Below, in pieces: positions 3,904 to 33,774 of a stretch of DNA of 56,096 nucleotides. Position numbers and translations under genes: made by a program. Location: the NCBI GenBank assembly GCA_964365915.1, contig CAYIRJ010000001.1, positions 1-56,096 of the forward strand. Direction: 5' to 3'. How positions within the stretch are numbered: the stretch's first letter is position 1; every line of letters begins with the position of its first letter. Below the pieces are notes generated by a model that did not search any database, had not been told where the DNA came from, and saw nothing but the letters and a program-made list of their open reading frames with translations. Source of the DNA: Candidatus Woesearchaeota archaeon. GTDB taxonomy: Archaea; Nanobdellota; Nanobdellia; SCGC-AAA011-G17; DATDVL01.

Positions 3904-3940
3904 GCGCGAGCTCTGCAACGAAAAATTTTACGGGATATAT

Positions 3941-4264: not shown

Positions 4265-4282
4265 CACCAGCGCTCTAGGGAT

Positions 4283-9517: not shown

Positions 9518-9768
9518 TACGTCCATGTTTAAGATCGTCAAGACTTTTACGTATACGCTCACGTATCGTCTTTTCATCAACAGGTGCAATCGGTTTTTTC
9601 ATTTCTTTTCTAGAAACCGTTATTGTTTCAGATCCCATAAACTATTGAAATTAATACCCTTAATATATCTTTCGCTGAAAATTCCGAAAATCTTCCGATG
9701 TATTCTTCAGCAGTGAATCCTTCTAATCCATAATGTTTATAAAAGCAATTTCTTCTCCTCAAAGAATT

Positions 9769-12840: not shown

Positions 12841-13083
12841 ATGGGAAGCATCAACATATCACTCAAGGAAGAAGCCTACGAATTTCTCAAGGCATTAAAA
12901 TCTAAGGAAAAGAGTTTTTCAGATATTATATTAGAATTCAAGGAAGAGAAAATGAGAAGAAAGGGAAGTAAAGACAGCATCTTGCAATTTTGGGGTGTAA
13001 TGAGGGCAACAAATGACGAATGGTTGCAAAAAGAAAGAAGAATGAAGAAGTTTAGGGAAGAAATTGAGCGTCGATTCAAATGA
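12841..13083 (+). CDS. vapB: VapB-like antitoxin (archaeal putative-antitoxin family)
   Basis: INISLKEEAYEFLKALKSKEKSFSDIILEF matches the archaeal PIN-associated antitoxin pattern. The stop overlaps the PIN gene start (ATGA). Confidence 0.7.
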   Translation: MGSINISLKEEAYEFLKALKSKEKSFSDIILEFKEEKMRRKGSKDSILQFWGVMRATNDEWLQKERRMKKFREEIERRFK

Positions 13084-13472
13084 TTGGATTAGATACAACC
13101 GCAATAATCGATCTGCTGCGAAAAGATACGAAAGTAAAAAGAAAATTAGAAGAACTACAAGGCCCGTTTGGAACAACAATTATGAACTATCAAGAGATAA
13201 TGTTTGGGCTGGATTTCAAAAACCCAAAACATAAACAAGAAGAAATGATCTATGATCAACTATTTGATGAGCTTTTTGTCTTTCCGTTGGACAAGGCATC
13301 TGCAAAATGTGCAACAGATATCGGTTGGGAATTGAAAGAGAAAGGTGAAGAAATAGGGAAATTTGACATTATCATCGCTTCTATATTGTTGACACAAGGA
13401 ATAAAAAAAATTATGACAAGGAATGTAGCACACCTAAAAAGAATTCCTGGAATTGAAGTAGTTTCTTATTAA
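13080..13472 (+). CDS. vapC: PIN-domain ribonuclease toxin VapC
   Basis: N-terminal MIGLDTTAIID carries the first PIN acidic residue. The size is about 130 aa and the gene is paired with an antitoxin. Confidence 0.8.
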   Translation: MIGLDTTAIIDLLRKDTKVKRKLEELQGPFGTTIMNYQEIMFGLDFKNPKHKQEEMIYDQLFDELFVFPLDKASAKCATDIGWELKEKGEEIGKFDIIIASILLTQGIKKIMTRNVAHLKRIPGIEVVSY

Positions 13473-18415: not shown

Positions 18416-21055
18416 ATGGAAGACGATCTGGAAAAGCGTAAGGAAAAAGTTGTTGCCTTTCTCAAGCAACATAAGCAATGGATAGTCTATTTGCTGTTAC
18501 TAGGAATTATCTGGCTAGGCGCAGACATTCGTTCTGCAAATATCCCTTTGCTCAAGGACCAGACGACAGGTGAGACAATCACTGCAGAACTGGATTCTAC
18601 CATTTTTCTCCGCTATGCTGAATACATTGCTGAGCACGGAAAGCTTCCTGCCGTGGATGCCATGCGCTTTGTTCCTGTCGGTGCAGATCTCAGTCATATT
18701 GGAACGTTTACGTCTTATTTTGTTGCGTACCTCTGGAAGTTTCTACATCTTTTCAATCCAGAGATAACTGTTGCCTACGTAGATATTATCTATCCTGTCA
18801 TTGCCATGGCAGTAATGACAATATTTTTGTTTCTGCTAGTGCGCAGAATCTTCAACGAAAAAGTAGCGTTACTCGCTTGCCTGTTCATTACGTTGATCCC
18901 TACATTCATTTTCAGGAGCACTGCAGGAAGTTCGGACCACGATATGCTGGGGATGATGCTTTTTGTCATGACTTTGTATTACTATGTCGTTGCGTATCAG
19001 GCAAGGTCGTTAAAGAAGACGTTGGTCTTTGGAGCCATCTCTGCAATCTTGGTATTTGTAGGAAGACATACTGCAGGCAATGCGAACTTCGCGCTGTTCA
19101 TTGTGGGTGCATTCACCTTAGTGAGTATCTTTCTCGACCGCTTTGAGAAAAAGGATTTTTACCTGTATGCACTCTGGCTAGGTCTGAGCATGCTGCTTCT
19201 CCAGCTTTCAGGAAAATTCGGCGGAGTAATGGCATTTGCAACGTCAGTTACTACTGGCATTGCTTTTGTTGCATTGCTCTTTGCTATTGTGGATTTCGTG
19301 GTGTTCAAGAAAGACCTATTCAAAATCCGGCAGCGCGTGGAAGCCAAAATGCCGCTCTGGATAGCCACGCTTCTAATCTCTCTTGTAATGGGGTCAATCA
19401 TCATTGCAGTTATGTTTGGTCCAGAGTACTTTGTCGTGAAGGGAAAGCACGTGCTCCAGTATGTGTTCAAGGCGTATGGTGAGACACGCTGGACACTGAC
19501 GGTTGCTGAAAATCGCAAGCCTTTTGTCGTGGATTGGTTCTCACAAATGGGTAAGCTCTTTGTGTATTTCTTCTTACTTGGCGGGGTTTGGCTGTTCTAT
19601 GAAACGGTCAAGAAGCTCAAGGGTGCAAAGATGCTGACAGGAATTTTTGCTCTCTTCTTGTTTGGCTATACCTTTTCAAGATATTCCCCAGATTCTGTCT
19701 TCAATGGTACGTCAACACTCTCGCATCTTACGTTCTATGGATCGTTGATAGGATTTTTTGTTCTTATCTTTTATCTTTATATCAGGATATTCTACAGAGA
19801 TCGTGAACAGTATAGGTATATTGCAGAAAATGTGAATTTAACATATGCATTCCTTTTCATCTGGTATATCATTATGGTCATGGCTGCAACCTCTGCAATC
19901 CGTTTACTGTTTGAATTTTCTGTGATTACCTCCATCTTAGCTGCATTTTTTATCATCGCAGCGCTGCAGTTTTTCTGGGAGCGCAAGCATAAGGTGTTAA
20001 GGTACGCAGGCATTCTTGTGATAGTATTAATTCTCGCAAGCCCATTCTCCCTGGGATTCATGTCTAAGGGAATGTTGCTGACGCACTATCAATCCAGTGA
20101 TTACCAGGCTGCAAACACGGGTCCTTCCTATGGCCAGCAGTGGCAGCTTGCAGGAAAATGGATAAGGGAAAACACGCCGAACGATGCAGTCTTTATCCAC
20201 TGGTGGGATTATGGCTACTGGGTGCAATCGGGATTCAAGCGCGCTACCGTTACTGATGGGGGAAATTTTTTCATCTATTGGAATTATCTGGTGGGAAGGC
20301 ATCTGTTGACAGGAGATGACGTTACCAAAGCATTCGAATTGATGAAGGCACATAAGGTCACGCATTTCCTAGTGGTTTCAGATGAGATTGGAAAATACGG
20401 TGCATACTCCAGCATCGGGTCTGATCTCAACTATGACCGCTTTGCATCCATTGGTATCTTTGCAAATAATCAGCAGCGAACACAAGAGACGCGCAACCAG
20501 ACCATCTTTGTTTACGAAGGAGGGGTACAGTTGTTCGAAACCTATACCTACGATGGTGTCGTGTTTCCTTCTTCCACTCCTGTCATTGGATTTTTGGTCT
20601 ATGCAAGCAACGTCAGCACCACATCCTCCTCTATTACGTTGACTTTCGAGAAGGTAGAGGCTATACTACATAAAGATGGCAAGCAGTACAACATTCCTCT
20701 TTCTTGTATTTTCTCTGATAAAGCATATGAACTGAACATACCCAATGCCATGCCTGCATGTCTAAGAATCATTCCCCAATTCAATGGGGGGAATCAATAT
20801 GTGCCATTGGGAAACGCGATATTTGTTCCTCCGAAGATAAAAAAGAATCTGTTTGGCAAGTTGTATTTGTTAGACGAAACAGTTCCTGGGTTTCAACTGA
20901 TTTACAATGACGCGTACCAAGCCCCTCTCGCAGTGTATCAGGGAAGATTAATCGGACCGCACCGCATCTGGGAAATTGAGTATCCTGAAAACATTGCAAT
21001 TAAAGAAGAATATTTGGCACTGGATTATCCTGATCCTCGGCTGAAAGCGCCGTAA
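18416..21055 (+). CDS. aglB: Oligosaccharyltransferase AglB/STT3
   Basis: WWDYGYW motif, about 13 N-terminal TM segments and a C-terminal soluble domain. Confidence 0.9.
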   Translation: MEDDLEKRKEKVVAFLKQHKQWIVYLLLLGIIWLGADIRSANIPLLKDQTTGETITAELDSTIFLRYAEYIAEHGKLPAVDAMRFVPVGADLSHIGTFTSYFVAYLWKFLHLFNPEITVAYVDIIYPVIAMAVMTIFLFLLVRRIFNEKVALLACLFITLIPTFIFRSTAGSSDHDMLGMMLFVMTLYYYVVAYQARSLKKTLVFGAISAILVFVGRHTAGNANFALFIVGAFTLVSIFLDRFEKKDFYLYALWLGLSMLLLQLSGKFGGVMAFATSVTTGIAFVALLFAIVDFVVFKKDLFKIRQRVEAKMPLWIATLLISLVMGSIIIAVMFGPEYFVVKGKHVLQYVFKAYGETRWTLTVAENRKPFVVDWFSQMGKLFVYFFLLGGVWLFYETVKKLKGAKMLTGIFALFLFGYTFSRYSPDSVFNGTSTLSHLTFYGSLIGFFVLIFYLYIRIFYRDREQYRYIAENVNLTYAFLFIWYIIMVMAATSAIRLLFEFSVITSILAAFFIIAALQFFWERKHKVLRYAGILVIVLILASPFSLGFMSKGMLLTHYQSSDYQAANTGPSYGQQWQLAGKWIRENTPNDAVFIHWWDYGYWVQSGFKRATVTDGGNFFIYWNYLVGRHLLTGDDVTKAFELMKAHKVTHFLVVSDEIGKYGAYSSIGSDLNYDRFASIGIFANNQQRTQETRNQTIFVYEGGVQLFETYTYDGVVFPSSTPVIGFLVYASNVSTTSSSITLTFEKVEAILHKDGKQYNIPLSCIFSDKAYELNIPNAMPACLRIIPQFNGGNQYVPLGNAIFVPPKIKKNLFGKLYLLDETVPGFQLIYNDAYQAPLAVYQGRLIGPHRIWEIEYPENIAIKEEYLALDYPDPRLKAP

Positions 21056-21103: not shown

Positions 21104-22105
21104 ATGCAATTCTTGCTGTATCTCGCGCCAGTGCTGAGCTTTGTAACAGCTTTATTATCCATGCCTTTGTGGATACGGTATTTAAAACGTATCGATCTCG
21201 TGGTCCCAGACAAAAACAAGAAGGACCAAAAGAAGTTAATTCCGATTTCTGGAGGCATGACAGTAATTTGCGGGATTCTCGCAGGAATTATGCTGTATAT
21301 TTTCATTCAGATTTTCTATTATGACAGGGGAGGCCAGGGTTCCCTGCTGTACATGTTTGCTGCATTGATGACTATTATTATCATTACTTTTATTGGTTTT
21401 TTGGATGATTTAATTGTCAATAAGCATATTGGCGAATCCACAGGATTGAGGCAGTGGCAAAAACCCATCTTGACATTGTGTGCAGCAATTCCCTTAATGG
21501 TTGTCAAGGCAGGAACCACATTTTTCTATGTGCCATTCATTCCCGGCATTGATCGTTTAGATGTGGGCATCCTTTACCCTTTAGTATTCGTTCCGATCGG
21601 TATTGTCGGCGCTTCCAACATGATCAACATGCTCGGCGGATTAAACGGATTGGAAGCAGGTATGGGATTAATCTACATGGGAAGCATGGGATTGTACGCA
21701 TATGCAAATGAAAGATATGCTGCTGCAGCAATAGCCGCAATCGTGTTTGCTGCGTTGCTTGCATTCTGGTTGTATAACAAGTATCCTGCAAAAATTTTCC
21801 CTGGAGATTCCTTAACGTATCTCTTGGGAGCATCATTAGTGTCAGTTGCAATTATAGGCAACTTAGAAAAGGCGGCATTAATATTGTCTATTCCATTTTT
21901 TATTGAATTTCTGTTAAAATGGCGTTCAAAGTTCAAGGCAAAATCGTATGGTTCCTACAAGAATGGAAAAATCCAGTCCTATTATGAAAAGATTTATTCC
22001 ATCCCCCATATTTGGACGCGCACCGGGAAGTACACAGAGAAGCAGGTGGTTACATTTTGCATCTTGATTGAAGTCTTCTTTGCAGGACTCATCTGGATCG
22101 TCTAA
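21104..22105 (+). CDS. Polyprenyl-phosphate N-acetylhexosamine-1-phosphate transferase (MraY/WecA/AglH family)
   Basis: NMINMLGGLNGLEAG motif in a polytopic membrane protein. Confidence 0.85.
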   Translation: MQFLLYLAPVLSFVTALLSMPLWIRYLKRIDLVVPDKNKKDQKKLIPISGGMTVICGILAGIMLYIFIQIFYYDRGGQGSLLYMFAALMTIIIITFIGFLDDLIVNKHIGESTGLRQWQKPILTLCAAIPLMVVKAGTTFFYVPFIPGIDRLDVGILYPLVFVPIGIVGASNMINMLGGLNGLEAGMGLIYMGSMGLYAYANERYAAAAIAAIVFAALLAFWLYNKYPAKIFPGDSLTYLLGASLVSVAIIGNLEKAALILSIPFFIEFLLKWRSKFKAKSYGSYKNGKIQSYYEKIYSIPHIWTRTGKYTEKQVVTFCILIEVFFAGLIWIV

Positions 22106-22106
22106 C

Positions 22107-23012
22107 ATGGTAAAGTTTTCCTTGATCATCCCCGTAGCTCCCTATAGGAATTGCGAAATCATGGACTCCATCAAAAAGTTGGACTATCCAAAAAAAGAAT
22201 GTGAAGTCATAACTGAATACGGCTACAATCCTTCTGATAATCGCAACCGCGCAATCAAAAAGTCGAAGGGAAAGTATTTAGTGTTTCTTGATGATGACGG
22301 AATCCTGGAAAAGGATTATTTGAAGCAGGCAGAGAAGTTCCTCAAGAAACATCCTGATGTGGACATTGTCGGCGGTCCACAATTAACTCCGCCTTCAGAC
22401 AGGTATTTTGCAAAAACCTCGGGCTACGTCATGAGCTCGTGGTTTGGCACGTATACAATGTCTTCCCGGTATTCCAAGAGAGAAGAAAATTTGGATGCAG
22501 ATGAATATTCTTTAACGTCTGCAAACTGCATTGCCAAGCGCGAAGTCTTTAAGAAAATCAAGCCTTTTGATCCAAGATTATTCCCAGGAGAGGATCCTGA
22601 GTTATACGCTCGCGCAAAGAAAGCAGGATTCAAGCTTGCATATACTCCTCAATTAATCATGTATCACCGTAGGCGTCCCACATTTTTTCAGTATTGCAAG
22701 CAGTTTTTCAAGTACGGTTTTGTACGCATGAGAAAGGAGAAGATTAACAAAACCCCCGTATTGATGGTGAATCCTGTATTTTTCATTCCTTCATTTTTCG
22801 TGCTTTATCTTGCAACACTTCCTTTATGGCTTGCTTTGCATCCCATCTTTCTATGGCCGCTAATAATGTATGGCATCTTGATACTCTGTTTTTCAGTGTA
22901 CGAAGTACATAGTCACAGTGATTGGAAGGCTCTTCCCGTATTGCCTTTCTTATATCTCAGTATGCATGTTGCGTATGGTCTGGGGATGTTGTATAGTTGG
23001 ATAAAAAAGTGA
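22107..23012 (+). CDS. GT2 glycosyltransferase with C-terminal TM segments
   Basis: FSLIIPVAP and VFLDDDG motifs. The ATG at 22107 follows the upstream stop. The longer ORF begins at a TTG. Confidence 0.8.
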   Translation: MVKFSLIIPVAPYRNCEIMDSIKKLDYPKKECEVITEYGYNPSDNRNRAIKKSKGKYLVFLDDDGILEKDYLKQAEKFLKKHPDVDIVGGPQLTPPSDRYFAKTSGYVMSSWFGTYTMSSRYSKREENLDADEYSLTSANCIAKREVFKKIKPFDPRLFPGEDPELYARAKKAGFKLAYTPQLIMYHRRRPTFFQYCKQFFKYGFVRMRKEKINKTPVLMVNPVFFIPSFFVLYLATLPLWLALHPIFLWPLIMYGILILCFSVYEVHSHSDWKALPVLPFLYLSMHVAYGLGMLYSWIKK

Positions 23013-23066
23013 CAAGAATTTTTAAATACAAGACATCAAAGAAACAAGAAGAAAAAGTGATTTTTC

Positions 23067-23918
23067 ATGGCAGTGAATGGTCAGAAACCCGCGATATTTA
23101 AGAGATTAGATGAAGATGCCCGATACTATCTTTATCCTTCAGGAAGGCAGGCATCGAAAAAGCAAAGAGAAGAGTTTTGTGAGAGAAATTATTCTTTCAT
23201 TGATTACATAACAGCGGTTAATCTCAAGCGTATTCCTTCGTATGCAGATCCTGATCTTATCAGAACAGCAGTGCATCTTGGATTCACAGAGTCGATGAAC
23301 AGATTCGATCCGGGAAAGGGAAGATTTTCGAGATACGCCACTGTTGTAGTAAATGGGAGAATAAAGAGCATCCTGCGTGACGAGGACCCTCTTTCAAGGT
23401 CGCAGAGAAAGAAGATTAAGATGATTGCATCACATCAAAAAGATTTGGAAAGCCGTGCAGGCGCACCAGTGACAGATGCAGAAATCATAGTTTCATGTTA
23501 TGGAGAAATGGGAAAAGATCCAAATCAAGAAGCTGAAGATTTTTTCAAACATCAGAAAGAATTGGAAACGATTAGGAAAAACTATCGTCTTGGCTACACC
23601 ATGCATCTGGAATGTTTAAATAGTAAAAAGGGTAAAGAAGGCAAAGGGTATCAGGCATTGTCAGCAAGAGAATCGGGAGAAACCATGATCAACAGCATAG
23701 CAGCACGAGAAGTTGTAGACCTTATTTTAAATTCTATTTTGTTCACAGATCTGGAAAGAGCCATCCTGAAGCTTCGTTACATGCATGGTTATGATCAACA
23801 CGAAGTAGGCTGGGGGATTAACATCTCAGACTTTTGGGTAAGTCAAATTCTTCGGTTTAAGATTCAGCCAAAACTGGACTGGTTGAAGAGAGAACTCCAT
23901 CTTGAAGAATTTTTCTAA
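23067..23918 (+). CDS. Sigma-70 family protein (group 3, FliA/sigma-28-like regions 2, 3 and 4)
   Basis: Region 2: DLIRTAVHLGFTESMNRFDPGKGRFSRYATVVVNGRIKSILRDEDPLSRSQRKKIKMI. Region 4: LERAILKLRYMHGYDQHEVGWGINISDFWVSQIL. A TATA-like tttttaaata lies about 40 nt upstream. Confidence 0.75.
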   Translation: MAVNGQKPAIFKRLDEDARYYLYPSGRQASKKQREEFCERNYSFIDYITAVNLKRIPSYADPDLIRTAVHLGFTESMNRFDPGKGRFSRYATVVVNGRIKSILRDEDPLSRSQRKKIKMIASHQKDLESRAGAPVTDAEIIVSCYGEMGKDPNQEAEDFFKHQKELETIRKNYRLGYTMHLECLNSKKGKEGKGYQALSARESGETMINSIAAREVVDLILNSILFTDLERAILKLRYMHGYDQHEVGWGINISDFWVSQILRFKIQPKLDWLKRELHLEEFF

Positions 23919-23948
23919 ATCTCTAAGTCCACAATCTTAAAAAAGGCA

Positions 23949-25109
23949 ATGTTCGGCATTCTTGAAATGAAGATTGCTTACGTCTGTGACTTTTACAAGC
24001 CTGCAATTGGCGGAGTAAATCAGGTGGTTGAAGAGCTTGCCGAGCGCCTAGCAAAGCAGGACCACGAAGTGCACGTGTACTGTTCTGATTGGGATAAGAC
24101 CAAGCGCATCAAACCATTAGAGGAAACCATCAATGGAGTGTATGTGCATCGCTGTTTTCATTGGTTCAGGGCGGTGAACTTTATTACCTTCTGGCCTTCG
24201 GTGCTGTTGAAATTATGGAGAGAAGATTTTGATATTATCCATTCCCATCTTCCCACCCACCCCCATGCTTTTTTCGCTGCAATGATAGGAAAGTTTCGCA
24301 ATATTCCTTTGATACATACAACTCACTGTCCCTGGTCTGATGCATATCGCAGTCCTTTCGGAAGGTTTATGGTGCCCCTTTCGCATCAGACCTTCGCACG
24401 CTTCGTCTTAAAATCTGCCAGGAAAATTATTGCCATTACCGAATGGGAAGATGGCTTTATTGCGAAATACGGTGGATCAAAAGAAAAAATTGTGCATATC
24501 CCCAATGGAATGGATGCAAGATTCTTTCAAACCATGAAAAACAATGACTTCAAGAAGAACTGGGGGATAAAAAATAAAATAGTCCTCTTCTTTGGAAGGT
24601 TAAATGCAACAAAAGGTCCAGATAAGTTCGTTGAAGCTGCGCACGAGATCCTGAAAGAACGGAAAGATATCACCTTTGTCATGCGGGGACCTGATGAGGG
24701 AATGAAGGCAACAGTAAAGAGATTAATAGGCAATGAAAAAAAAATTATATTGTTGGAGCCCACACGGGATAAGCAGGAGATTATGAAGATGTACCAGGCT
24801 GCTGATTGCTATGTGCTTCCGAGTTATCGCGAAGGTCTTCCCTTGACCTTGTTTGAAGCCTATGCTGCAGGTCTTCCAGTAGTCGCAACACCAGTGAATG
24901 GGGTAAAATATGAGTTAAAGGAAGGAGTGAATGGGTTGCTCGTTCCCTATGGGGATATTCGTGCACTCAAAAAGGCAATACTCAAGGTGCTCGACGATCC
25001 CAAGCTTGCGAAAGAATTCATGATGAACAACAAGAAAAAAGCAATGTATCATACCTGGGATGAGATTGCACAAAAAACATTGCAGTTGTATGAGCAGGTG
25101 ACCAAATGA
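23949..25109 (+). CDS. Glycosyltransferase, GT-B fold (Glycos_transf_1 / CAZy GT4-like)
   Basis: EGLPLTLFEAYAAGLPVVATPVNG (EX7E motif). Confidence 0.85.
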   Translation: MFGILEMKIAYVCDFYKPAIGGVNQVVEELAERLAKQDHEVHVYCSDWDKTKRIKPLEETINGVYVHRCFHWFRAVNFITFWPSVLLKLWREDFDIIHSHLPTHPHAFFAAMIGKFRNIPLIHTTHCPWSDAYRSPFGRFMVPLSHQTFARFVLKSARKIIAITEWEDGFIAKYGGSKEKIVHIPNGMDARFFQTMKNNDFKKNWGIKNKIVLFFGRLNATKGPDKFVEAAHEILKERKDITFVMRGPDEGMKATVKRLIGNEKKIILLEPTRDKQEIMKMYQAADCYVLPSYREGLPLTLFEAYAAGLPVVATPVNGVKYELKEGVNGLLVPYGDIRALKKAILKVLDDPKLAKEFMMNNKKKAMYHTWDEIAQKTLQLYEQVTK

Positions 25110-25978
25110 TAAGTGTGATCATCACTGCATATCATGAAGAGCATTCTATTGGCAAGGCAATTCAGGCAGTGCTGGACCAGAAAGTGAAGAACTGCGAAAT
25201 TCTTGTCATTGCTCCTGATGACGCTACCTTGCAGGCAGCGAAAAAGTACAGGCAAGTAAAAGTGATTCAAGATCCTGGTAAAGGAAAACCTGCAGCATTG
25301 AACCTTGCATTTTCCCAAGTGAATAGAAAATCTGCATTCTTGATATTGACTGATGGTGATGTGTTCTTGGGAAAGGACGCGATCAAAAATTTGATCCAGC
25401 ACTTTGATCCTGAGGTGGGTGCAGTTTCCGGACATCCCATCTCTCTCAGCCCAAGAAAAACATTGCTGGGTTATGCAAGCCATAATTTCACAGACTGGTG
25501 GGACTGGATCAGGAAAAAAAGGGAAAAAACCAACCAGATATTAATTTGCTCTGGCTACTTATTTGCGTTGCGAGCAGGAATAATCAAGAAAATCCCTGAA
25601 GATGCCTTAAGTGATGATGCAGTCATGAGCTATGAAGTCTACAAGAAAGGATGGAAAATTCGTTATGCTCCCGATGCGCAGGTGTATGTAAAGTATCCTA
25701 CGACCTTCTCTGATTGGCTTAAGCAAAAGAGAAGAAGTGCAGGGGGATATCTGCAGACAAGAAAATATTTCAAGAATATGCCAACGACGCGAAGTTTCTG
25801 GAAAGAGACGCAGCACGCTACGCTCTGGATTTTGTGGTATCCGAGAAATGTACGAGAAATCTTTTATACCATGCTGTTATTTGCACTGCGAACAGCCCTT
25901 TGGGGTGCGATTTACCTCGATAAGATTAGGAAAAAATCCTTCAGTCAAATCTGGCAGCCAGTGGAGAGTACGAAGTAA
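25106..25978 (+). CDS. GT2 glycosyltransferase
   Basis: ISVIITAYHEE and ILTDGD motifs. The start overlaps the upstream stop (ATGA). Confidence 0.8.
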   Translation: MISVIITAYHEEHSIGKAIQAVLDQKVKNCEILVIAPDDATLQAAKKYRQVKVIQDPGKGKPAALNLAFSQVNRKSAFLILTDGDVFLGKDAIKNLIQHFDPEVGAVSGHPISLSPRKTLLGYASHNFTDWWDWIRKKREKTNQILICSGYLFALRAGIIKKIPEDALSDDAVMSYEVYKKGWKIRYAPDAQVYVKYPTTFSDWLKQKRRSAGGYLQTRKYFKNMPTTRSFWKETQHATLWILWYPRNVREIFYTMLLFALRTALWGAIYLDKIRKKSFSQIWQPVESTK

Positions 25979-25979
25979 G

Positions 25980-26687
25980 ATGGAAGAGAATGAATACAAA
26001 GCTATGTATGAAGTTGAAGAGAAGCATGCATGGTTTCGGGCCAAGCGGGAAATGATGATTGATTTATTCAGTAGATTTGGCAACAACGGTTCTGCAATTT
26101 TAGACATAGGCTGTGGCACAGGAGTCATTGCTAGTTTTTTTGCCCAAAAAAATCAAGTGATTGGTTTAGATATTTCTGCTACTGCTTTAAGGTATGCAAA
26201 AATGCGCGATAAGACGTTGAAATTAGTGAAAGGTGATGCGCAGAATGTAAAGTTCAAGCCAGAGACCTTTGATTGGGTGTTTGCTTCTGATGTCATTGAG
26301 CATGTGAAAGATGATTACAAGGCAATGCAAAATATTCATAACGTATTGAAACCGGGAGGGAAGATATTGATTACAGTACCCGCATTGGAATTCCTCTGGG
26401 GAAAAGATGATGATTTGGTGCATCACCAACGTCGCTACACAAAAAAACAACTAAAACAGTTGTTGAGTGCAAGCGGATTTACGATAGAGTTTCTCAATTA
26501 TTGGGATATTCTCATGTTTCCTGCAGTCGTTATCTACAAATTGTTGAACAAAAGTCAGACAGTAGCAGAACTAACGCCATTGGCAAACAAATTAGCGTAT
26601 GCAATTTTGAAAGCAGATACGAAACTTATTCAACATATTCCCGTACCCTTCGGAGTTTCTCTCGTCGCCATTGCAACGAAGCGATGA
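25980..26687 (+). CDS. Class I SAM-dependent methyltransferase
   Basis: ILDIGCGTG motif. The ATG at 25980 directly follows the upstream TAA. The longer ORF from 25737 only overlaps the GT2 gene. Confidence 0.8.
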   Translation: MEENEYKAMYEVEEKHAWFRAKREMMIDLFSRFGNNGSAILDIGCGTGVIASFFAQKNQVIGLDISATALRYAKMRDKTLKLVKGDAQNVKFKPETFDWVFASDVIEHVKDDYKAMQNIHNVLKPGGKILITVPALEFLWGKDDDLVHHQRRYTKKQLKQLLSASGFTIEFLNYWDILMFPAVVIYKLLNKSQTVAELTPLANKLAYAILKADTKLIQHIPVPFGVSLVAIATKR

Positions 26688-26830
26688 ATCGTCTTTGTCT
26701 GAGGACTAAAAATGACAGAAAGATTTTTATAAGAATGATGAGAAATAAGAACATGCAATAACGCAGTTCAGATAGGGGATATGACCAAAAGGATTTATTT
26801 GATGATTTGGTAAAAGAAGTACGGAATTGC

Positions 26831-27148
26831 ATGATCAGTGTATCAAGAAAAATTCAAAAAACTGGGGACCAGTATCAACTGGTAATCCCATTAAAAGGGG
26901 AAAATTATCGGATTTCTGTGGGTTATATCAGATTTCTGGATGCATATGAACTTGAAGTGAAGGACAGAAACTTTGAAGTGGTTCAAGAGTTTAAAGGAGA
27001 TCTTTTTAAGGAAACTCTCAGAGAATTATATCAATCTCTTAATGCAAAAATCGGGCAAAGAATAGCTGATGAAAATGAAGCAGCACGAAAAGAAAGACTT
27101 TGTCAATTGCGCGATGCCTGCAGTCTAGAACAGAAAGTTCAAGATTAA
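26831..27148 (+). CDS. Hypothetical small protein
   Basis: ORF only. The ATG at 26831 is preferred over the upstream TTG. Confidence 0.35.
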   Translation: MISVSRKIQKTGDQYQLVIPLKGENYRISVGYIRFLDAYELEVKDRNFEVVQEFKGDLFKETLRELYQSLNAKIGQRIADENEAARKERLCQLRDACSLEQKVQD

Positions 27149-27183
27149 CAACCCTTAAAAACCGTTTTTCTTCTTTTTTTCCT

Positions 27184-28752
27184 ATGCGATCGCGCTGGGT
27201 GTGGATACTCGTAGGAATTGCTCTGGTGTTGCGTTTGTTGCTTCTCACGTTTCATGAGACTGTGGAAATTGATGGTGTCTATTACATCACCATGGGCAAG
27301 AATTTCATCCAAGGAAATGGCTTGCGCGACATCGAAGGCAATATCAACACCGTCTTCATGCCTCTATATCCTATTTTTACTGGAGTAGTGAGCCTGATAG
27401 TGTCCAATGGGGAGCTTGCTGCTCGTTTGATTTCCATCATTTTCGGAGCATTGCTCATTCTTCCAGTCTATGGTCTTGCGCGTCGCATCTATGATCAAAA
27501 AGTAGCGCTGATTGCCGCAGCCATCACAGCAGTGTATCCCGCACTCACCTACATTTCAAGTATTACTTATGCAGATTCGCTGTACCTCTTCTTGATTACC
27601 AGCGCCATGTATACTGGATATCGTGCCTTGCAGAGTGGTGTGCTCAAGGAGTATATTGCCACTGCAGTGCTCTACAGCCTTGCGTATTTGACAAGACCCG
27701 AAGGATGGCTCTATATTCTCCTGACTGCCCTATATGTGCTCTGGCATAAAAGAGAACAATGGAAGAAAGCAATCAAGCCTGCAGCAACAGTACTAATCGT
27801 CGCATGTCTTGTGGTGCTTCCATATCTTGCATTTGTCTACACGCAGTCAGGAGATCTCTCATTGAGCAGCAAGGGATATGTTATTTACAAGTTCAGAGCC
27901 TACCAACCTTTCTCTGAAGAGTATGAAAAGAATATCTTTGGTTTGAACGAAGCGAAAGATGACATTCTCTTGAACCCGTACAAGGTGAGAGGAAGTTTTG
28001 TCAAGGAAGTAATTGCGCAGAGTGATGTATTCCTGCTGCGATACATCACGAATCTTGTTCGCGAGATCTATATAGTAATCCCGAAAGTCTTTCCCTTCAT
28101 CATTTTTTCACTATTTGCATTTGCTTTGCGAAGCTGGAACAAGGACGAATGGAAAAAAGAATCATATTTGCTGATGCTGGTGGCATATCCTATATTATTT
28201 TATCCTCTCTTCTGGGTGGAAGCACGGTACCTGCTCCCTATTCTTCCCATTGTGATACTCTGGGCGGGAAAAGGTATCGTGCAAATTGCTGAACGATGGA
28301 AGAGTATCAAGATTTCTTGGATGATAACAGGAATTATCCTTGTTTCCTTGCTGGGAAACATCTTTGCAAATCATCTGATTGACAGCAGATTTGAAAAAAT
28401 AAATCCTCCTGTGGAACACAAGCAGGCAGGGCTTTGGGTGAAGGAACAGTACATGCATCCGCGCATCATGGAGCGCAAGCCCTGGGTAAGTTTTTATGGT
28501 GGCGGCACCTTTGTGAATTTTCCCTATGTGAACAGTTATGATGAATTGATCATCTACGCATGCAACAACAAAGTAGATCTAATGGTGATTGATGAAAGGT
28601 ACACAGCACCTCTGCGTCCTCAAGTAGCAGCGCTCCTGGGATATCCCAACCCCACACTCTATCCTGAAGTGCACAAAGTCTATGAAGAACAGGCATATCC
28701 TCCGAAGAAGAGCATTATGATCTATCAGATAAATTGCGATAAGAACCTATAA
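27184..28752 (+). CDS. GT-C membrane glycosyltransferase (ArnT/PMT-like)
   Basis: Polytopic protein with an acidic first loop (HETVEIDGVYY) and a C-terminal soluble domain. ATG at 27184. Confidence 0.7.
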   Translation: MRSRWVWILVGIALVLRLLLLTFHETVEIDGVYYITMGKNFIQGNGLRDIEGNINTVFMPLYPIFTGVVSLIVSNGELAARLISIIFGALLILPVYGLARRIYDQKVALIAAAITAVYPALTYISSITYADSLYLFLITSAMYTGYRALQSGVLKEYIATAVLYSLAYLTRPEGWLYILLTALYVLWHKREQWKKAIKPAATVLIVACLVVLPYLAFVYTQSGDLSLSSKGYVIYKFRAYQPFSEEYEKNIFGLNEAKDDILLNPYKVRGSFVKEVIAQSDVFLLRYITNLVREIYIVIPKVFPFIIFSLFAFALRSWNKDEWKKESYLLMLVAYPILFYPLFWVEARYLLPILPIVILWAGKGIVQIAERWKSIKISWMITGIILVSLLGNIFANHLIDSRFEKINPPVEHKQAGLWVKEQYMHPRIMERKPWVSFYGGGTFVNFPYVNSYDELIIYACNNKVDLMVIDERYTAPLRPQVAALLGYPNPTLYPEVHKVYEEQAYPPKKSIMIYQINCDKNL

Positions 28753-28759
28753 AAAGAGT

Positions 28760-30361
28760 ATGGCAAGAGATGAGCTAATGGAAGGAGTGGAACAACGCCT
28801 GCGACTGTTGAATGTTCTCACCTCAAAAAAAGTTTGGATCATTGCCGCAATTCTTGTTTTTGCCTTTGTTCTTCGTTTTATTGTGGCAATCGTGCATGAG
28901 CCTCCTGCGCAATGGTGGGATTCAGGAGACCATCTTACCGGAGCAAAGGAAATATGGAACATCGCCGAGTACGATACGTATGAACTAAGCCCGCGACGCC
29001 CTTTCTTTCTGAGCATACTCTGGGGTTTTTTTCTCAAGCTGGGAGGTGATGACACAATATTATTGTTTGTATCTGTAGTGTTCTCCTTGGCAATCGTCTG
29101 GCTGACGTATCTTCTTGCCAAGAAGCTCTTTGATCAAAAAGTAGCATGGATTGCTGCTTTGCTTTCCGCGGTATTCTGGCAATATGTATTTCACACCACG
29201 CGCCTGCTCACTGATCTTCCTTCGCTTGCATTTTGGCTTGCTGCTGCATATTTCTTCTGGCAGGGCTATGTCGAGGAGCGCTCAAAAAAGGATTTGTTGC
29301 TTGCAGGTCTGTTCTTTGGTTTGGCATGGTTCACGCGCGCAGCAAGTTTGATTTACATCATTCCGTTGTTTGCTGTGGTAATAGTAAAGGAGCGAGCAAG
29401 ATTCTTCCTCAACAAGCGGCTCTGGATGATAGTACTCATTGCTATCGTTGCAATCTCTCCTTTTCTCATCTGGCTGTTCACTTCATTTGATAATCCGGTG
29501 CAGAAATTTACAGGGTTAGGAGGGGGAGAACAGCGCTTTGCCGGCAAGGGACAACCGAAGTATCTCTGGTTGAACTTGGAGCATATTGCAAACGATGTCA
29601 TGTCTCCAATGATCGCAGGAAAATTCTTCAGTCCGCGATTTTTAGGATTCTTTATCATGCTCATTGTTTTTTTCCTGTATGGAAGTCTGTTCTTGGGATT
29701 CGACATGTTATGGAAAACAAAGGATAAGCAGTTGCTCAAGCGTTGGTTTTTGCTGGTTTGGCTGCTGACTCCCTATGTATTCTATAGCCTGACTGCTGCA
29801 GGCGTTGAGGATCGTTATTTGTTTGGGATGTTTCCTGTCCTGTTCATGGCGCTGGGAGAAGGAATCGTAAAGATAGGATCCTTCATAAAAAACCAAAGCA
29901 AAATCCTTTCCTATGCGATAGTTGTCGCAATACTACTTGTTCTCATGTATGGCCATACTGTCGCTGGCTATAACGCTGCGCTCAATGCAAAAAGCGGATT
30001 TGCAGAGGTTGCCTTTGCAGGACAGTGGATCAAAATGAATTCCAATCCAGATGATGCAGTCATTACCGCTTCCAAATACCAGAACATGTATTACAGTGAG
30101 AGAAACACGTATCCCTTTATTGCAAAAGCAGAAGACAGGGAAAATGCATCTTCATTTACTACACGCTTAGAAGAAATTCATCCAAAGTTTGTTATCATAT
30201 CTGTTTACGAGCCTGCCTTCACTCCACCCTGGACCTACAATTTTCCGCAGGAACATCCGGAATTGTTGCAGCCGGTGCAGGCGTATTATGACCAGAACAA
30301 AAATCCAAGATTAGTGGTGTATGGGTATTTGAAGCATCCTGCGTTCATGCAACAACAGTAA
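28760..30361 (+). CDS. GT-C membrane glycosyltransferase (ArnT/PMT-like)
   Basis: Same architecture as the preceding gene. Confidence 0.7.
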   Translation: MARDELMEGVEQRLRLLNVLTSKKVWIIAAILVFAFVLRFIVAIVHEPPAQWWDSGDHLTGAKEIWNIAEYDTYELSPRRPFFLSILWGFFLKLGGDDTILLFVSVVFSLAIVWLTYLLAKKLFDQKVAWIAALLSAVFWQYVFHTTRLLTDLPSLAFWLAAAYFFWQGYVEERSKKDLLLAGLFFGLAWFTRAASLIYIIPLFAVVIVKERARFFLNKRLWMIVLIAIVAISPFLIWLFTSFDNPVQKFTGLGGGEQRFAGKGQPKYLWLNLEHIANDVMSPMIAGKFFSPRFLGFFIMLIVFFLYGSLFLGFDMLWKTKDKQLLKRWFLLVWLLTPYVFYSLTAAGVEDRYLFGMFPVLFMALGEGIVKIGSFIKNQSKILSYAIVVAILLVLMYGHTVAGYNAALNAKSGFAEVAFAGQWIKMNSNPDDAVITASKYQNMYYSERNTYPFIAKAEDRENASSFTTRLEEIHPKFVIISVYEPAFTPPWTYNFPQEHPELLQPVQAYYDQNKNPRLVVYGYLKHPAFMQQQ

Positions 30362-30554
30362 AATACTAGATAAGATAACACCCATTGAAAAAATTGACTA
30401 ATGCATCAGACATTGAATGTCGTTCTTGAGTATTTGGAACAGCGAGGATTAATTCTTGATGGACATAAGGGCATTCTTTGGACACACAATGATAATCCTA
30501 AATTGCGTAGAGCAATAAATCAAGGAACCGAAATATGACATTTAGTGTGCAAAA

Positions 30555-31682
30555 TCAAGAATAAAGATTCCTTCCATCGCATCGTACGTCAGGAAGTCCC
30601 ATCATTGCCAAGAGAGTAGGAAACAAGTCCACAATGTGTGCTTCCTGTTTCCCTGAAAACCCCTTTACCAAATAAAACGCTTTCTGCTCTTTAGGATTCC
30701 ATCCATGCATGGCTTTATACTGCATATTCTTCGTGAAAAAGCTGGGGCTGAAAACGACCCCTTTCTTTGCTAAGAAAACAACATGGCTGGTAGCAGGCAA
30801 TCGAAAGACATGCTGGTCAATAATGGTTCCTTCAGTAATGCAGGATAATGCATGCACCACGATATTGCGCGCCTCAGCAGTGGAAAACCAGAAACGTGCA
30901 TACGTGCTTCCTAAAAAGTACGTATAATCTTTCCCAAATTTCAGCTTGAGCTTCTGCAGTTCAGCTTCCAAATCAAAAATTTCCTGAATGTAATCCATGC
31001 CGTGGTCTGAGAAAAAAACCATCTGCTCCTCATCAAGTTCCTGGCAATAGCCATCAATTTCTCGCAGCTTTGCTTTCACTTCTTCAGAATTCGGGCCATA
31101 GATGTGCCCAACATGATCCAAGTCTCCAAAGTGAATAAAATTAAAGTCAGCAGCACAGCTCCGTGCATGTCGTATGACTGTTGCAGAATCATTTTTGAAG
31201 AAAAGTCTGCTTTTTCTGTTGTGGAAGACAAAAGGCCAGTCGACTGCAGCAAAGCTTTTCCCTGCTCGTTCCAAGTAATCAAAAAGCGTAGGCAAAGGCA
31301 AGCATCCACGCTGCATCCAGATTTTTTCTAGTGTTGGCTTGAAATGGCGCGCCTTTGATTGATGCACTTTCAAGGGAGTGTAAAAATAAAGATTGCGGGA
31401 AAGATAGCGTAGCCCGTTGGCAAGAATTCTGTTGCGGATAATAAAGGGAGCAGGAGTTTTTCTTTTTTCAAAGACATCAATCACCCCATGTTTTTCTGGA
31501 TGGAATCCCGTCATGAAAGAAGCGACAATGCTGGTATAGCCAAAAGGCACTTCTAGATTCCCATGAAGAGAGTGCTGCGCAAGATTTCGTAAATAAGGGG
31601 TGTGTTGCAGGTATTCTTGTTTAAATCCGTCTAAGAAGATGCACTTCATAACAGCCTCTGCGTGTAATATTTTCCATAGCAA
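30555..31682 (-). CDS. Alkaline-phosphatase-superfamily enzyme (nucleotide pyrophosphatase/phosphodiesterase-like)
   Basis: IFLDGF, GYTSIVASFMTGFHPEKHGV and FIHFGDLDHVGHIYGP motifs. Confidence 0.7.
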   Translation of the reverse strand: MLWKILHAEAVMKCIFLDGFKQEYLQHTPYLRNLAQHSLHGNLEVPFGYTSIVASFMTGFHPEKHGVIDVFEKRKTPAPFIIRNRILANGLRYLSRNLYFYTPLKVHQSKARHFKPTLEKIWMQRGCLPLPTLFDYLERAGKSFAAVDWPFVFHNRKSRLFFKNDSATVIRHARSCAADFNFIHFGDLDHVGHIYGPNSEEVKAKLREIDGYCQELDEEQMVFFSDHGMDYIQEIFDLEAELQKLKLKFGKDYTYFLGSTYARFWFSTAEARNIVVHALSCITEGTIIDQHVFRLPATSHVVFLAKKGVVFSPSFFTKNMQYKAMHGWNPKEQKAFYLVKGFSGKQEAHIVDLFPTLLAMMGLPDVRCDGRNLYS

Positions 31683-32833
31683 TAGAGTGCAGCTTTTCGT
31701 AATGCTTCAAAAGCTTCTCCTTCTACAGGAGCCAGATATTTGAGGTAGTGTTTGCATGCATCGAGTAGCTGAGGATCTTCCAATGCATATAAGAGCAAAA
31801 ATGCAGGCATGAACACTCTCACTCCGACATCCCGCCATTTCATGAGTGCTGGAACATATCGTGTTCGCAAGAAGTACAACCCATTCAGTCCATACTGCAG
31901 AGGAACTGCAGCTCTCCCGATCGAAAGATAGGGAACATGGTATTGCAATGGCAATTTTTGATAAATCTTTTGCATCAGCTCTTCCTTGCGTGTTGCAAAA
32001 ATCCTCAGGTCATGCTGCGCAAGGTAATTGATCGTGAAATACAGGGCATCACGTGCCTCCTTCCAGAACTGCACAGGATCTTTGATTTTTGCAGGCTGAA
32101 AGTCGCACTTCATGCGCGTCGCAAATGTTACCTTTTTTGCCAGATCTGGCATTTCCTTTCCGTACAGCTTCTTGAACAAGGCAGCTCTCCCGCGATACGT
32201 TCCGGAAAAATGGTGCTTCAAAAGAAGTAATGCTTCTGCGCATCCCATGAACGTTTTCAGTGCATAGTAGATGCAGATAAGCTTTTCATCATCCTTAAAT
32301 TTTCCTTGCCATCTTCGTTCATCCATCGCTAAAAGTAAAAGGCAGGACTTGTTGATCATGTGCCGCCATCCTTCAGAAAGGGGAAGGTCCCGTTCCGTAA
32401 TCTGGATGAGATCACGATAATCATTTCCATACAGTAATTGCGTGCTGTATTTGATTTCATACGTGCGCGTGGTGGGCTTGAGCTTGGATAAGGCAGCAAC
32501 AGGAATTGCCCGCAAGTCCACATGGAAAAACTTTTTCCTCTGATATCCTGTTCCGTCAGTCTCGATGAATTCTCCACCACCCATTCCGATGGCAGCAGAT
32601 GCTTTTTTTCCCACGCGCTCCAGTTCTGCATCAGGGACCGCTCTCTCAGTAATAATATATATGTCAAAATCGTTGAACACTTCCTTCCGGTTCAGAATAG
32701 TCCCTTCTCCCTTGCCAAAGCTGCCGAACATCAGCACGCTTAGCGGCTGCAGTTCTTCTACAATAATCTGTGTTACTCTCTTCACTTTTTCTTTCACCAT
32801 TCCTTCAATGTGCTTATGATGGGTAGTAAACAT
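31646..32833 (-). CDS. Pol-beta-superfamily nucleotidyltransferase domain protein
   Basis: LMFGSFGKGEG followed by DFDIYII. Confidence 0.6.
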   Translation of the reverse strand: MFTTHHKHIEGMVKEKVKRVTQIIVEELQPLSVLMFGSFGKGEGTILNRKEVFNDFDIYIITERAVPDAELERVGKKASAAIGMGGGEFIETDGTGYQRKKFFHVDLRAIPVAALSKLKPTTRTYEIKYSTQLLYGNDYRDLIQITERDLPLSEGWRHMINKSCLLLLAMDERRWQGKFKDDEKLICIYYALKTFMGCAEALLLLKHHFSGTYRGRAALFKKLYGKEMPDLAKKVTFATRMKCDFQPAKIKDPVQFWKEARDALYFTINYLAQHDLRIFATRKEELMQKIYQKLPLQYHVPYLSIGRAAVPLQYGLNGLYFLRTRYVPALMKWRDVGVRVFMPAFLLLYALEDPQLLDACKHYLKYLAPVEGEAFEALRKAALYCYGKYYTQRLL

Positions 32834-33765
32834 CAGAAGTACCTCTCTTCCCGCATCGATAAAATCCCTCCAAGGATGGTGCCAATCAACCCAATGACGC
32901 GATTGATCAATGCAAGAGAAAGAGCAACTGCAGGGTCAATGCCAAACACTTTATTGAACAGCACGGTGATGGCCAGTTCAGAAGTGCCAATGCCCCCCAC
33001 AGTGATGGGAATTAAGGTGATCAGCGTGGCAATGGAGGAGACGAAGATAAAGGAAAGCAGGGGCACGTTCACATGCAGTGCAAGCGCAATTAGGTACATC
33101 TGCAAGTACAGCACAAACCAAACCCCAAGCGTAGCAATAATAGGAAGAACAATCTGCTGTGGTTTCAGCAGGGTTGCATGAAACGCTTCAAAGGAAATGC
33201 GCGCCCGATCTTTGAATTTTCTCGGAACCAGAAAGTAGAATACCCTCCAGATAAAAAAATTCCGTGTCGGTTCGTGGAGGGAAAGCAGCAGGACGACGAT
33301 CAATACCAAAAAAAGAATGAGGAACTGAAAAAAAATACCATGAAAGTATTTCAATGTCACGATCGATCCCAAAAATGCAAAGGATGCTACGGTGAACAAG
33401 TCAAAGAAGCGTTCCAGGGTGACAGAGGAAATGCAGGCCCCAATGTTTTTTTTCGTGCGCTCCTTCAGATGAAATATTTTAGAGAACGTTCCGATTCTTC
33501 CCGGAGTGATGTTGCCATAAAAATTACTAATCAAATGCACTTTGAGGATATAAGAAAAAGGCAAGAAGATGCTCTGGCGATGCAGGATCAAGTTCCATTT
33601 CCACGCTTGCGCAGCAATAATAACAAAGCTCAGTGCAATGCTGAGCAGCACATAATTCCATTGGACAGTAGGGAGCGTCTCTGCAAGCTTGTCAAATCCC
33701 ACTCTGTGGATAACGTAAAGAAATAAAAGAATCCCTATCAGCGGAAGAAGCTTTCGAATTTTCAT
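32833..33765 (-). CDS. Flippase-like membrane protein (lysyl-PG synthase TM region / UPF0104-like)
   Basis: About 8 TM segments. The N-terminus (KIRKLLPLIGILLFLYVIHRVGFDKL) is typical of this family. Confidence 0.65.
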   Translation of the reverse strand: MKIRKLLPLIGILLFLYVIHRVGFDKLAETLPTVQWNYVLLSIALSFVIIAAQAWKWNLILHRQSIFLPFSYILKVHLISNFYGNITPGRIGTFSKIFHLKERTKKNIGACISSVTLERFFDLFTVASFAFLGSIVTLKYFHGIFFQFLILFLVLIVVLLLSLHEPTRNFFIWRVFYFLVPRKFKDRARISFEAFHATLLKPQQIVLPIIATLGVWFVLYLQMYLIALALHVNVPLLSFIFVSSIATLITLIPITVGGIGTSELAITVLFNKVFGIDPAVALSLALINRVIGLIGTILGGILSMREERYF

Positions 33766-33774
33766 AGGTCATGG

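Follow-up and report, generated by a model that had tools for sequence, protein, structure and literature searches.

A divergent sigma-70-family gene in a variable slot of the AglB locus of a DPANN archaeon

The sigma-like gene and its archaeal surroundings

The DNA analysed here, called the window throughout, is a whole stretch of 56,096 nt (contig CAYIRJ010000001.1, assembly GCA_964365915.1) from a groundwater DPANN archaeon of the Nanoarchaeia/Woesearchaeota type, in which an open reading frame (ORF) of the bacterial-type sigma-70 family lies among glycosylation genes. The original prediction, made from the letters alone, had described a sigma-70 (sigma-28/FliA-like) gene embedded in an archaeal glycosylation cluster and preceded by an archaeal-style TATA box and a GTGA element; both peptide stretches that it quoted are found inside the 283-aa translation of the ORF, and both upstream elements lie ahead of its ATG. 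The gene and the cassette that it occupies are laid out as follows (L and P numbers are our handles for comparison loci and proteins).

23013-23924, plus strand: sigma cassette of ~912 bp, window-specific and absent from the closest relatives (blastn against L091, L092 and L014)
23019-23028, plus strand: TATA-like box TTTTTAAATA of the sigma-like gene, ~40 nt before the ATG (sequence reading)
23057-23060, plus strand: GTGA, Shine-Dalgarno-like, 6 nt before the ATG (sequence reading)
23067-23918, plus strand: sigma-70-family ORF of group-3 (FliA/SigF-like) architecture, ATG start, 283 aa

The protein belongs to the sigma-70 family at the superfamily level. It passed the NCBIfam family TIGR02937 (sigma-70 family) with 49.9 bits against a curated cutoff of 42.9, and all 21 NCBIfam families that matched it were sigma factors, the next after TIGR02937 being FliA_WhiG (E 2e-16), SigB/F/G and FliA. 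The profile check proposed with the original prediction was borne out by this match, whereas the Pfam models for regions 2 and 4 ended about 2 bits below their gathering thresholds (Sigma70_r2, residues 71-107, 22.0 against 24.0 bits; Sigma70_r4, residues 227-263, 22.7 against 24.1 bits; E ~1e-4 for each) and Sigma70_r3 went undetected in the Pfam scan of the protein. The top sequence matches in the PDB were FliA (9wsf and 9wsm) and SigF (1l0o). An AlphaFold2 model built on an alignment of 60 sequences has a mean predicted local distance difference test (pLDDT) score of 85 and is entirely helical, with a soluble protein predicted and three helical domains (sigma-2, sigma-3 and sigma-4) plus a linker. 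In a Foldseek comparison with the PDB, sigma factors made up 50 of the 50 matches listed, over alignments of 246-280 columns, and these include B. subtilis SigD, SigB, sigma-28, WhiG and sigma-S. The domains map to the window as follows.

23148-23387, plus strand: sigma-2 domain, residues ~28-107, with FDPGKGRFSRY and RIKSILR (Pfam r2; model helices H31-106, pLDDT >90)
23397-23594, plus strand: sigma-3 domain, residues ~111-176 (model helices H111-131, H137-145 and H152-176; aligns with FliA region 3)
23598-23675, plus strand: low-confidence linker, the equivalent of region 3.2, residues ~178-203 (pLDDT 47-61)
23676-23894, plus strand: sigma-4 domain with the 4.2 helix-turn-helix, residues ~204-276 (Pfam r4; model helices H204-276)

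The label FliA-like therefore needs to be read with care. FliA/WhiG (sigma-28) and SigB/F/G provide the best sequence and structure matches, the order sigma-2, sigma-3, linker and sigma-4 is theirs, and the window protein retains the FDPxxGxxFxTY motif and the 4.2 helix-turn-helix. On the other hand, it is at most 31% identical to them and scored 60.4 bits against a cutoff of 189.6 with the FliA/WhiG subfamily model TIGR02479 and 49 bits against 201 with PRK06986. Membership of FliA/WhiG was rejected on these far-missed subfamily cutoffs together with the replacement of near-invariant residues described below, the lack of a flagellar context and the lack of a sigma-28 promoter signal, so that the original prediction was right about the nearest relatives, which are FliA/sigma-28-type, and not about the family itself. 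Flagellar genes, sporulation genes and FlgM are all missing from the locus, where AglB and glycosyltransferases surround the gene. In the window, the sigma-28 -10 element GCCGATAA (full element TAAA-N15-GCCGATAA), at no more than one mismatch, gave 36 matches against 35 expected and is not enriched, and generic sigma-70 promoter and terminator scans around the gene stayed at chance level. No second sigma-like ORF, no anti-sigma gene and no bacterial RNA polymerase (RNAP) subunit gene was found in the window.

The surroundings of the gene are archaeal.

5339-6427, minus strand: aRF1, with all three eRF1 domains
9733-10485: diphthamide synthase Dph6
18416-21055, plus strand: AglB/STT3 oligosaccharyltransferase, 879 aa (Pfam STT3 and STT3-PglB_core; WWDYGYW motif)
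21104-22105, plus strand: glycosyltransferase (GT) family 4 (AglH/WecA-like) phosphosugar transferase (Pfam Glycos_transf_4, E 1.7e-33)
22107-23012, plus strand: GT2b, an AglI-like family-2 glycosyltransferase, left border of the slot that holds the cassette (Pfam)
23927-23945, plus strand: predicted GT1 core promoter, GTCCACAAT and CTTAAAAAAG (conserved across lineages)
23967-25109, plus strand: GT1, a GT4-family glycosyltransferase, bounding the slot on the right and opening the downstream block (Pfam)

AglB/STT3 anchors the locus as an N-glycosylation cluster, in which GT2, GT1, methyltransferase and PMT_2 genes form a co-directional run. Some sources name the homologues of GT2b AglI or dolichyl-linked GT, and GT1 orthologues begin with M[KR]IA[YL]VCD. 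The central claim of the original prediction, a sigma-70-family gene in an archaeal glycosylation cluster, is upheld by the TIGR02937 match, the sigma fold and the aRF1, Dph6 and AglB neighbours.

The possibility that the contig is chimeric at this gene, raised with the original prediction, is excluded, since an independent assembly of a different replicate from Hainich groundwater well H51 (L001) reproduces window positions 22284-28750 at 99.9% identity, without gaps and across both gene junctions, and the synteny is conserved in another archaeal species. The identical 283-aa protein is encoded on two other assemblies from well H51 (0.1 um fraction, different replicates), L001 being one of the two. 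The metagenome-assembled genomes (MAGs) with loci syntenic to the window are titled Candidatus Nanoarchaeia, Woesearchaeota or Pacearchaeota only, and the homologues of the neighbouring GT2 bear the names Nanoarchaeota, Nanoarchaeia and Woesearchaeota archaeon. There is no step in GC content at the gene; its codon usage ranks 29th of 40 genes by distance from the pooled usage, within the native range, and its GC content at third codon positions (GC3) is a little low (0.37 against ~0.46).

These data bear on the idea of a canonical sigma factor acting on a bacterial core polymerase, be it because the contig is bacterial or chimeric or because the protein is delivered to a bacterial partner, which we regard as exceedingly improbable. 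That the protein is sigma-like throughout fits this idea, but the chimeric version is refuted by the independently reproduced junctions, the synteny is kept in several archaeal MAGs, aRF1, Dph6 and AglB share the contig, the upstream signals read as an archaeal promoter and a Shine-Dalgarno-like element, and the conserved promoter-recognition residues are altered. The window shows no gene dedicated to secretion or delivery, and an entirely helical, soluble protein is what the model predicts; the suggestion of the original prediction that a bacterial host is targeted found no support.

Bacterial relatives and the archaeal orthologue

The window protein has few relatives. A word-indexed search with it among 5.8 billion proteins gave zero matches, and a search of the 5.8 billion with a two-sequence profile recovered only its own fragment and the protein P0007. 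An exhaustive phmmer search of 1.84 billion representatives returned 735 matches at E <= 1e-3, with a single non-self match below 1e-10, a bacterial FliA/WhiG protein of 31% identity. One archaeal relative was identified in this set, the others being bacterial FliA-like proteins of no more than 31% identity; those named are FliA/WhiG proteins of Bacillota, Holophagales and an unclassified bacterium. P0003, a genuine FliA match, is encoded in a flhA-flhF-flhG-fliA-fliM operon, and P0090, among the nearest bacterial-type matches, sits in a phage-like bacterial contig. Because the bacterial relatives are all at most 31% identical, no donor lineage can be named.

The archaeal relative, P0007/P0151, is a 267-aa protein (E 5.7e-9) annotated as 'hypothetical protein [Candidatus Nanoarchaeia archaeon]'. 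The contigs of P0151 carry, in the order of the window, GT2, nitroreductase, a 530-aa gene, a SpoIIM-like gene, AglB, GT4, GT2b and the sigma-like gene, followed, again as in the window, by GT1, GT2c, a methyltransferase, two PMT_2 genes and a phosphodiesterase. Between the two loci the flanking proteins are 47-79% identical and the sigma-like proteins 25%. A neighbour-joining tree placed the two FliA-like archaeal proteins as sisters in 93 of 100 bootstraps, a grouping in which long-branch attraction is possible, and we give more weight to the synteny and to shared derived residues. Such residues stand at six sites that are near-invariant in the bacterial relatives, namely F73 (originally L), S76 (A), V/I94 (R), R98 (A), S101 (D) and F226 (L), and a C-terminal motif, QILxxKxxPKL, is common to the window protein and its orthologue and absent from the rest of the phmmer match set. 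Another candidate, P0057, was considered as a third archaeal locus, as it adjoins a GT2 gene, and was rejected as a coincidence: the GC content of its contig is 62%, and the adjoining GT2 shows no relationship to GT2b.

The identity between the two archaeal proteins is unevenly spread: it reaches 41% in the sigma-2 core (residues 61-114) and 53% in the 4.2 recognition helix (254-270), against 16% in sigma-3, 11% in the linker and 20% in the N-terminus, and the two agree at 50% of the columns conserved in bacterial sigma factors versus 20% of the others. The orthologue also models confidently (pLDDT 80), with the same three-domain layout. Since the identity sits in the sigma-2 core and the 4.2 helix and both models are confident, we take the sigma-like ORFs to be constrained and not decaying. 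No dN/dS (nonsynonymous-to-synonymous substitution) signal was available from the five contigs carrying P0151, which are identical across the gene; P0007 and P0151 differ by four substitutions, all within residues 1-38, a stretch that is mostly the poorly predicted N-terminus of the model.

Constraint on the fold goes together with change at functional sites. The window protein keeps 21 of 42 highly conserved bacterial sigma columns, F87 and Y90 in the sigma-2 core are retained, and the replaced near-invariant residues are L->F73, A->S76, R->V94, A->R98, D->S101 and R->W257, the last of which stands for the conserved R of the 4.2 helix. The original prediction had called for a look at core-binding residues; F87 and Y90 are retained, and near-invariant residues of regions 2.2-2.4 are replaced. 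Several positions that bacterial sigma factors hold fixed for melting and recognizing promoters differ here, which argues for a shifted function.

A bacterial sigma factor in an archaeon is in itself not new, since sigma-70 genes (fam00359) have been reported in DPANN archaea as 'particularly prevalent in Woesearchaeota' (Castelle et al. 2021, Front Microbiol, PMC8204110), with mis-binning excluded, no anti-sigma factors found and the mechanism called unclear. The window gene fits this description in being of the sigma-70 family, in a Woesearchaeota-type genome that is soundly assembled and without an anti-sigma gene, a comparison with fam00359 made by description only; it differs in what can be said of it, as that paper gives presence and prevalence only.

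The slot between GT2b and GT1 and its possible role

With conserved neighbours as anchors, we compared the interval between GT2b and GT1, which we call the slot, in seven lineages. It contains a FliA-like sigma gene in two, a sigma gene resembling those of the extracytoplasmic function (ECF) group in three, and nothing in two.

Window: FliA-like sigma, 283 aa
L091 (GT2b 84% identical to that of the window): empty, the GT1 promoter directly following the GT2b stop
L092/L014 (GT2b 83% identical): empty, on many independent contigs
L095 (GT2b 72% identical): ECF-like ORF of ~211 aa (called as 235 aa)
L093 (GT2b 66% identical): ECF-like ORF of 188 aa
L094 (GT2b 65% identical): bestrophin-like gene and ECF-like ORF of 197 aa
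L004 type (GT2b 65% identical): FliA-like sigma, 267 aa

The survey of related archaea suggested in the original prediction thus recovered one orthologue, P0007/P0151, with the slot ECF-like or empty elsewhere. The class of the ECF-like occupants rests on PRK12513, an ECF sigma model, for L093 (E 1e-10) and L094 (E 8e-8), with further SigM, RpoE and TIGR02937 matches; these scores, that of PRK12513 included, are all below the curated cutoffs, and the families matched are in every case sigma families. The L095 ORF is placed here because over 211 aa it is 40% identical to the protein of L094 and because it matches Sigma70_r2 weakly. The three proteins are 37-41% identical to one another, and between this trio and the FliA-like pair there is no specific similarity beyond a generic sigma-2 (hhalign E 0.14). 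Like ECF (group-4) sigma factors, they consist of sigma-2 and sigma-4 in ~190-210 aa, while the window protein differs from that group by its sigma-3, and no anti-sigma partner is present. In L094, positions 5466-6308, upstream of the ECF-like gene, encode a 280-aa bestrophin-like membrane protein, so the slot is able to take more than one cargo gene. PADLOC defence models gave no match for the window protein, P0151, the L094 and L095 proteins or GT1, and one marginal match for the L093 ORF (HamB, E 9.5e-4), which is taken as chance.

Outside these lineages, the ORFs upstream of GT1 in 25 other metagenomic loci (L016-L043) are neither FliA-like nor ECF-like, and in more distant Woesearchaeota (L096-L098) GT2b is followed by a B12-radical-SAM gene, without GT1. 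In a Woesearchaeota MAG, ERP119705_co24_41, the block from the slot to the radical-SAM gene is inverted (L009 9867-15271 against window 23013-35736), and one of the breakpoints falls exactly on the GT2b stop. This contig stops short of where the sigma gene would be expected, and L009 was set aside as uninformative about the slot. As both the distant Woesearchaeota and L009 have GT2b next to the radical-SAM gene, the GT2b/GT1 junction belongs to one sub-lineage only and lies at an inversion breakpoint.

The borders of the cassettes are sharp. The alignment of the window with its empty relatives (blastn, 74-76% nucleotide identity) stops at ~22988-22995 and resumes at 23925, and in these relatives (L091, L092 and L014) the GT2b stop leads straight into the GT1 promoter. 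L004 and L093 align at ~82% nucleotide identity as far as 24 nt beyond the GT2b stop and once more from the ORF end on, their middle segments of 826 bp and 577 bp being unalignable. In the other filled slots (L004, L093, L094 and L095), a TATA-like element follows directly after the GT2b stop, and a GTGA precedes the ATG in three of the five occupied slots, the equivalents of the window element being GTGAAAATG in L004 and GTGATCATG in L093. With a TATA-like element of their own and the GTGA, the cassettes appear, as far as the letters tell, to be fitted with archaeal expression signals. The cassette of the window is bracketed by a 10-nt exact direct repeat, AAGAATTTTT (23014-23023 and 23905-23914), one copy lying 2 nt beyond the stop codon of GT2b and its partner within the final codons of the sigma ORF. 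The repeat is not conserved in L004, its length is common by chance in an AT-rich stretch, and it could be a recombination footprint or chance. Downstream, GTGCAyAAy followed by a TATA box occurs 20-30 nt before the GT1 ATG in seven of seven lineages, whether the slot is filled or empty.

The content of the slot ignores the tree of its flanks, in which the window groups with the two empty lineages and L004 with L093, and the simplest reading is accordingly that cassettes are exchanged and lost by recombination in the conserved flanks. L094 is itself a mosaic, with a GT2b 79-82% identical to those of L004 and L093 and a GT1 81% identical to that of L095 and only 60% to those of L004 and L093. 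With recombination in the flanks, the low identity of the 'orthologue' may reflect old alleles as much as fast evolution. We find no paper in the searchable literature that links sigma genes to an AglB locus or mentions ECF-type sigma factors in Nanoarchaeota. Nor, it appears, has that literature described the fixed position of the slot in this locus, its switching among FliA-like, ECF-like and empty states, the sharp edges of the cassettes or how extremely the sigma-like proteins have diverged.

The simplest deflationary view is that the cassette is a functionless passenger or relic, bacterial DNA drifting neutrally at a recombination or inversion breakpoint of a hypervariable glycan locus, which we consider unlikely. 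Several observations speak for it, namely (i) the empty slot in the two closest lineages, (ii) the extreme divergence of the sigma-like protein (25% against 47-79% for the flanks), (iii) a clade of two lineages only among 5.8 billion proteins, (iv) the coincidence of the slot with the inversion breakpoint, and (v) the somewhat low GC3. Neutral drift is, however, hard to square with intact ORFs of 188-283 codons in five lineages, with residual identity placed at the sigma hallmark positions and the recognition helix, or with two divergent orthologues that both model confidently as three-domain sigma factors; the cassettes each seem to carry an archaeal TATA box and a Shine-Dalgarno-like element, and without selection for 'a sigma here' it is difficult to see why two sigma groups should share one slot.

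Cargo of a mobile element or virus, moron-like and serving the element rather than the cell, is distinctly less probable again. Presence and absence of a single gene within sharp borders would suit such cargo, as would the match to PHROG sigma families (E 9e-9), the phage-like contig of P0090 and a 2025 study reporting divergent rpoS-like genes on DPANN viruses and a prophage (PMC12647753). Those genes resemble ours in being divergent sigma-family genes in a DPANN setting, but the slot has no viral neighbours: no integrase, transposase, long att-like repeat or viral gene stands beside the slot in any lineage, and the sole flanking repeat is the 10-nt one, maybe due to chance. No IMG/VR relatives emerged, a protein-pattern scan returning nothing and a scan with FDPxKGxFSxY returning six phage sigma factors of motif-level similarity only, and the slot lies inside a housekeeping-type AglB operon. 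Of the mobile-element relic suggested in the original prediction, the swappable single-gene cassette is what stands; the gene is intact and constrained, without mobility genes nearby or viral relatives.

We instead favor, tentatively, an accessory sigma-derived DNA-binding regulator tied to the glycan locus, with its mechanism inferred. An intact, expressed-looking gene of the sigma-70 family is resident in the genome of a DPANN archaeon as a single-gene cassette with a putative archaeal TATA promoter of its own. Its slot in the AglB locus is fixed, with the AglI-like GT2 on the left and the conserved promoter of the GT1-GT2-methyltransferase-PMT block on the right, and cassettes would be swapped or lost through recombination in the conserved flanks. 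To our knowledge, archaea lack a bacterial core RNA polymerase, and with no such polymerase in the host the protein would no longer be a bacterial initiation factor. It may have been co-opted as an accessory, strain-variable transcription regulator of surface-glycan genes that binds DNA through sigma-2 and the sigma-4 helix-turn-helix, the domains common to group-3 and ECF sigma factors, and modulates the archaeal TBP/TFB/RNAP machinery in the manner of other archaeal regulators with a bacterial-type helix-turn-helix. Because two sigma groups recur directly upstream of the surface-glycan block, the selected property is probably sigma-2 plus sigma-4, the modules that read nucleic acid and bind partners. 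A regulator is favored because the gene-specific regulators of archaea are mostly bacterial-type helix-turn-helix proteins that act on TBP/TFB promoters. The parallel with archaeal Lrp, TrmB and MarR/ArsR regulators concerns the proposed working and not membership: each would be a bacterial-type DNA binder beside a B recognition element (BRE)/TATA promoter, whereas fold and ancestry differ. A TrmB-family gene is present in the same locus of L004. Of the three guesses offered in the original prediction, a stand-alone DNA-binding regulator fits best.

Several considerations weigh against such a regulator: (i) as the slot is empty in close relatives, the sigma-like gene is dispensable; (ii) the very low identity to the orthologue could reflect relaxed constraint; (iii) the element upstream of GT1 is probably BRE/TATA and not a sigma-dependent site, because it is present in the lineages with an empty slot too; (iv) full-length bacterial sigma factors usually bind DNA poorly without core polymerase; and (v) the best-conserved motif, FDPxKGxFSxY, lies in what is in bacteria part of the core-binding and melting module, which hints at a protein partner rather than a purely stand-alone DNA binder.

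A bolder proposal is that the protein genuinely serves the archaeal RNA polymerase as an alternative factor for initiation or specificity, with sigma-2 on the clamp coiled-coil and sigma-4 together with sigma-2 reading a bipartite promoter, which we think very improbable. In bacteria, the sigma-2 core binds the beta-prime clamp helices and the non-template strand, and bacterial and archaeal polymerases have a clamp coiled-coil of conserved structure, which counts in its favor, as do the sigma-2 core being the best-conserved segment, with F87 and Y90 retained, and sigma-2 plus sigma-4 being the exact overlap of the FliA-like and ECF-like cassettes. The lack of an anti-sigma factor, both in the window and in the DPANN survey (PMC8204110), also speaks for it. 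Set against this, the proposal is without precedent, both archaeal proteins carry replacements at near-invariant positions of regions 2.2-2.4, the window shows no enrichment of the sigma-28 -10 motif (36 observed against 35 expected), and the downstream genes retain a normal BRE/TATA promoter even where the slot is empty. Its extension to the whole slot, that FliA-like and ECF-like proteins were both recruited because sigma-2 plus sigma-4 engage the archaeal RNAP clamp, making a locus-specific factor for surface-glycan genes, has an equally slim chance of being right.

The sigma-70 genes of DPANN archaea are a known oddity, given the eukaryote-like transcription apparatus of these cells and the missing bacterial core polymerase, and this locus makes the question approachable by offering a defined position, a conserved promoter and an N-glycan/surface-glycan block. 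Otherwise collinear genomes provide natural 'knock-outs' (empty slots) and 'swaps' (FliA-like against ECF-like), and the functional requirement is narrowed to sigma-2 and sigma-4, which both groups share. If the regulation of glycan genes is true, horizontally acquired bacterial regulators would be linked to variation of the cell surface, which in episymbiotic DPANN cells is the interface with hosts and viruses; if the cassettes are inert, they would caution against inferring function from the 'bacterial systems' reported in DPANN genomes; and if docking on the clamp is true, a bacterial-type sigma mechanism would be working in archaeal transcription, with cassette swapping rewiring the cell surface by strain.

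Other features of the window

In addition to the generic GT1/GT4 families, GT1 (region 23949-25109) matches the Pfam family PF20706, 'Family 4 glycosyltransferase in conflict systems' (69 bits, E 4e-19), which is probably family cross-similarity only, since PADLOC finds nothing. At the upstream edge of the co-directional glycosylation run, positions 13080-13472 encode a PIN-domain protein of 130 aa. The radical-SAM ORF at 33775-35736 (minus strand, 653 aa) contains an intein (Intein_splicing and Hint_2, residues ~230-378), and its orthologue in L009 (9927-11429), at 500 aa, is consistent with an intein-free allele. There is also an island of low GC content (35854-37157; 0.31 against ~0.42) with two small ORFs, the second of which has weak nucleotidyltransferase/AbiEii-toxin-like matches (NTP_transf_5, DUF6036 and AbiEii); the two may form a toxin-antitoxin or defence pair.

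A likely diversity-generating retroelement (DGR) spans 583-5389 of the window.

3993-4162: RT-16 RNA of the DGR (Rfam, 78.7 bits)
4160-4227: template-like repeat of the DGR, 68 nt
4283-5389: reverse transcriptase (RT) ORF of the DGR (RVT_1)

A copy of the template-like repeat is found at 3794-3861, at the 3' end of ORF 3127-3903, with nine differences, eight of which are adenines in the RT-proximal copy. Repeats of 300 nt and 99 nt, both 91-92% identical, link ORF 3127-3903 to a second, paralogous target ORF at 583-1485.

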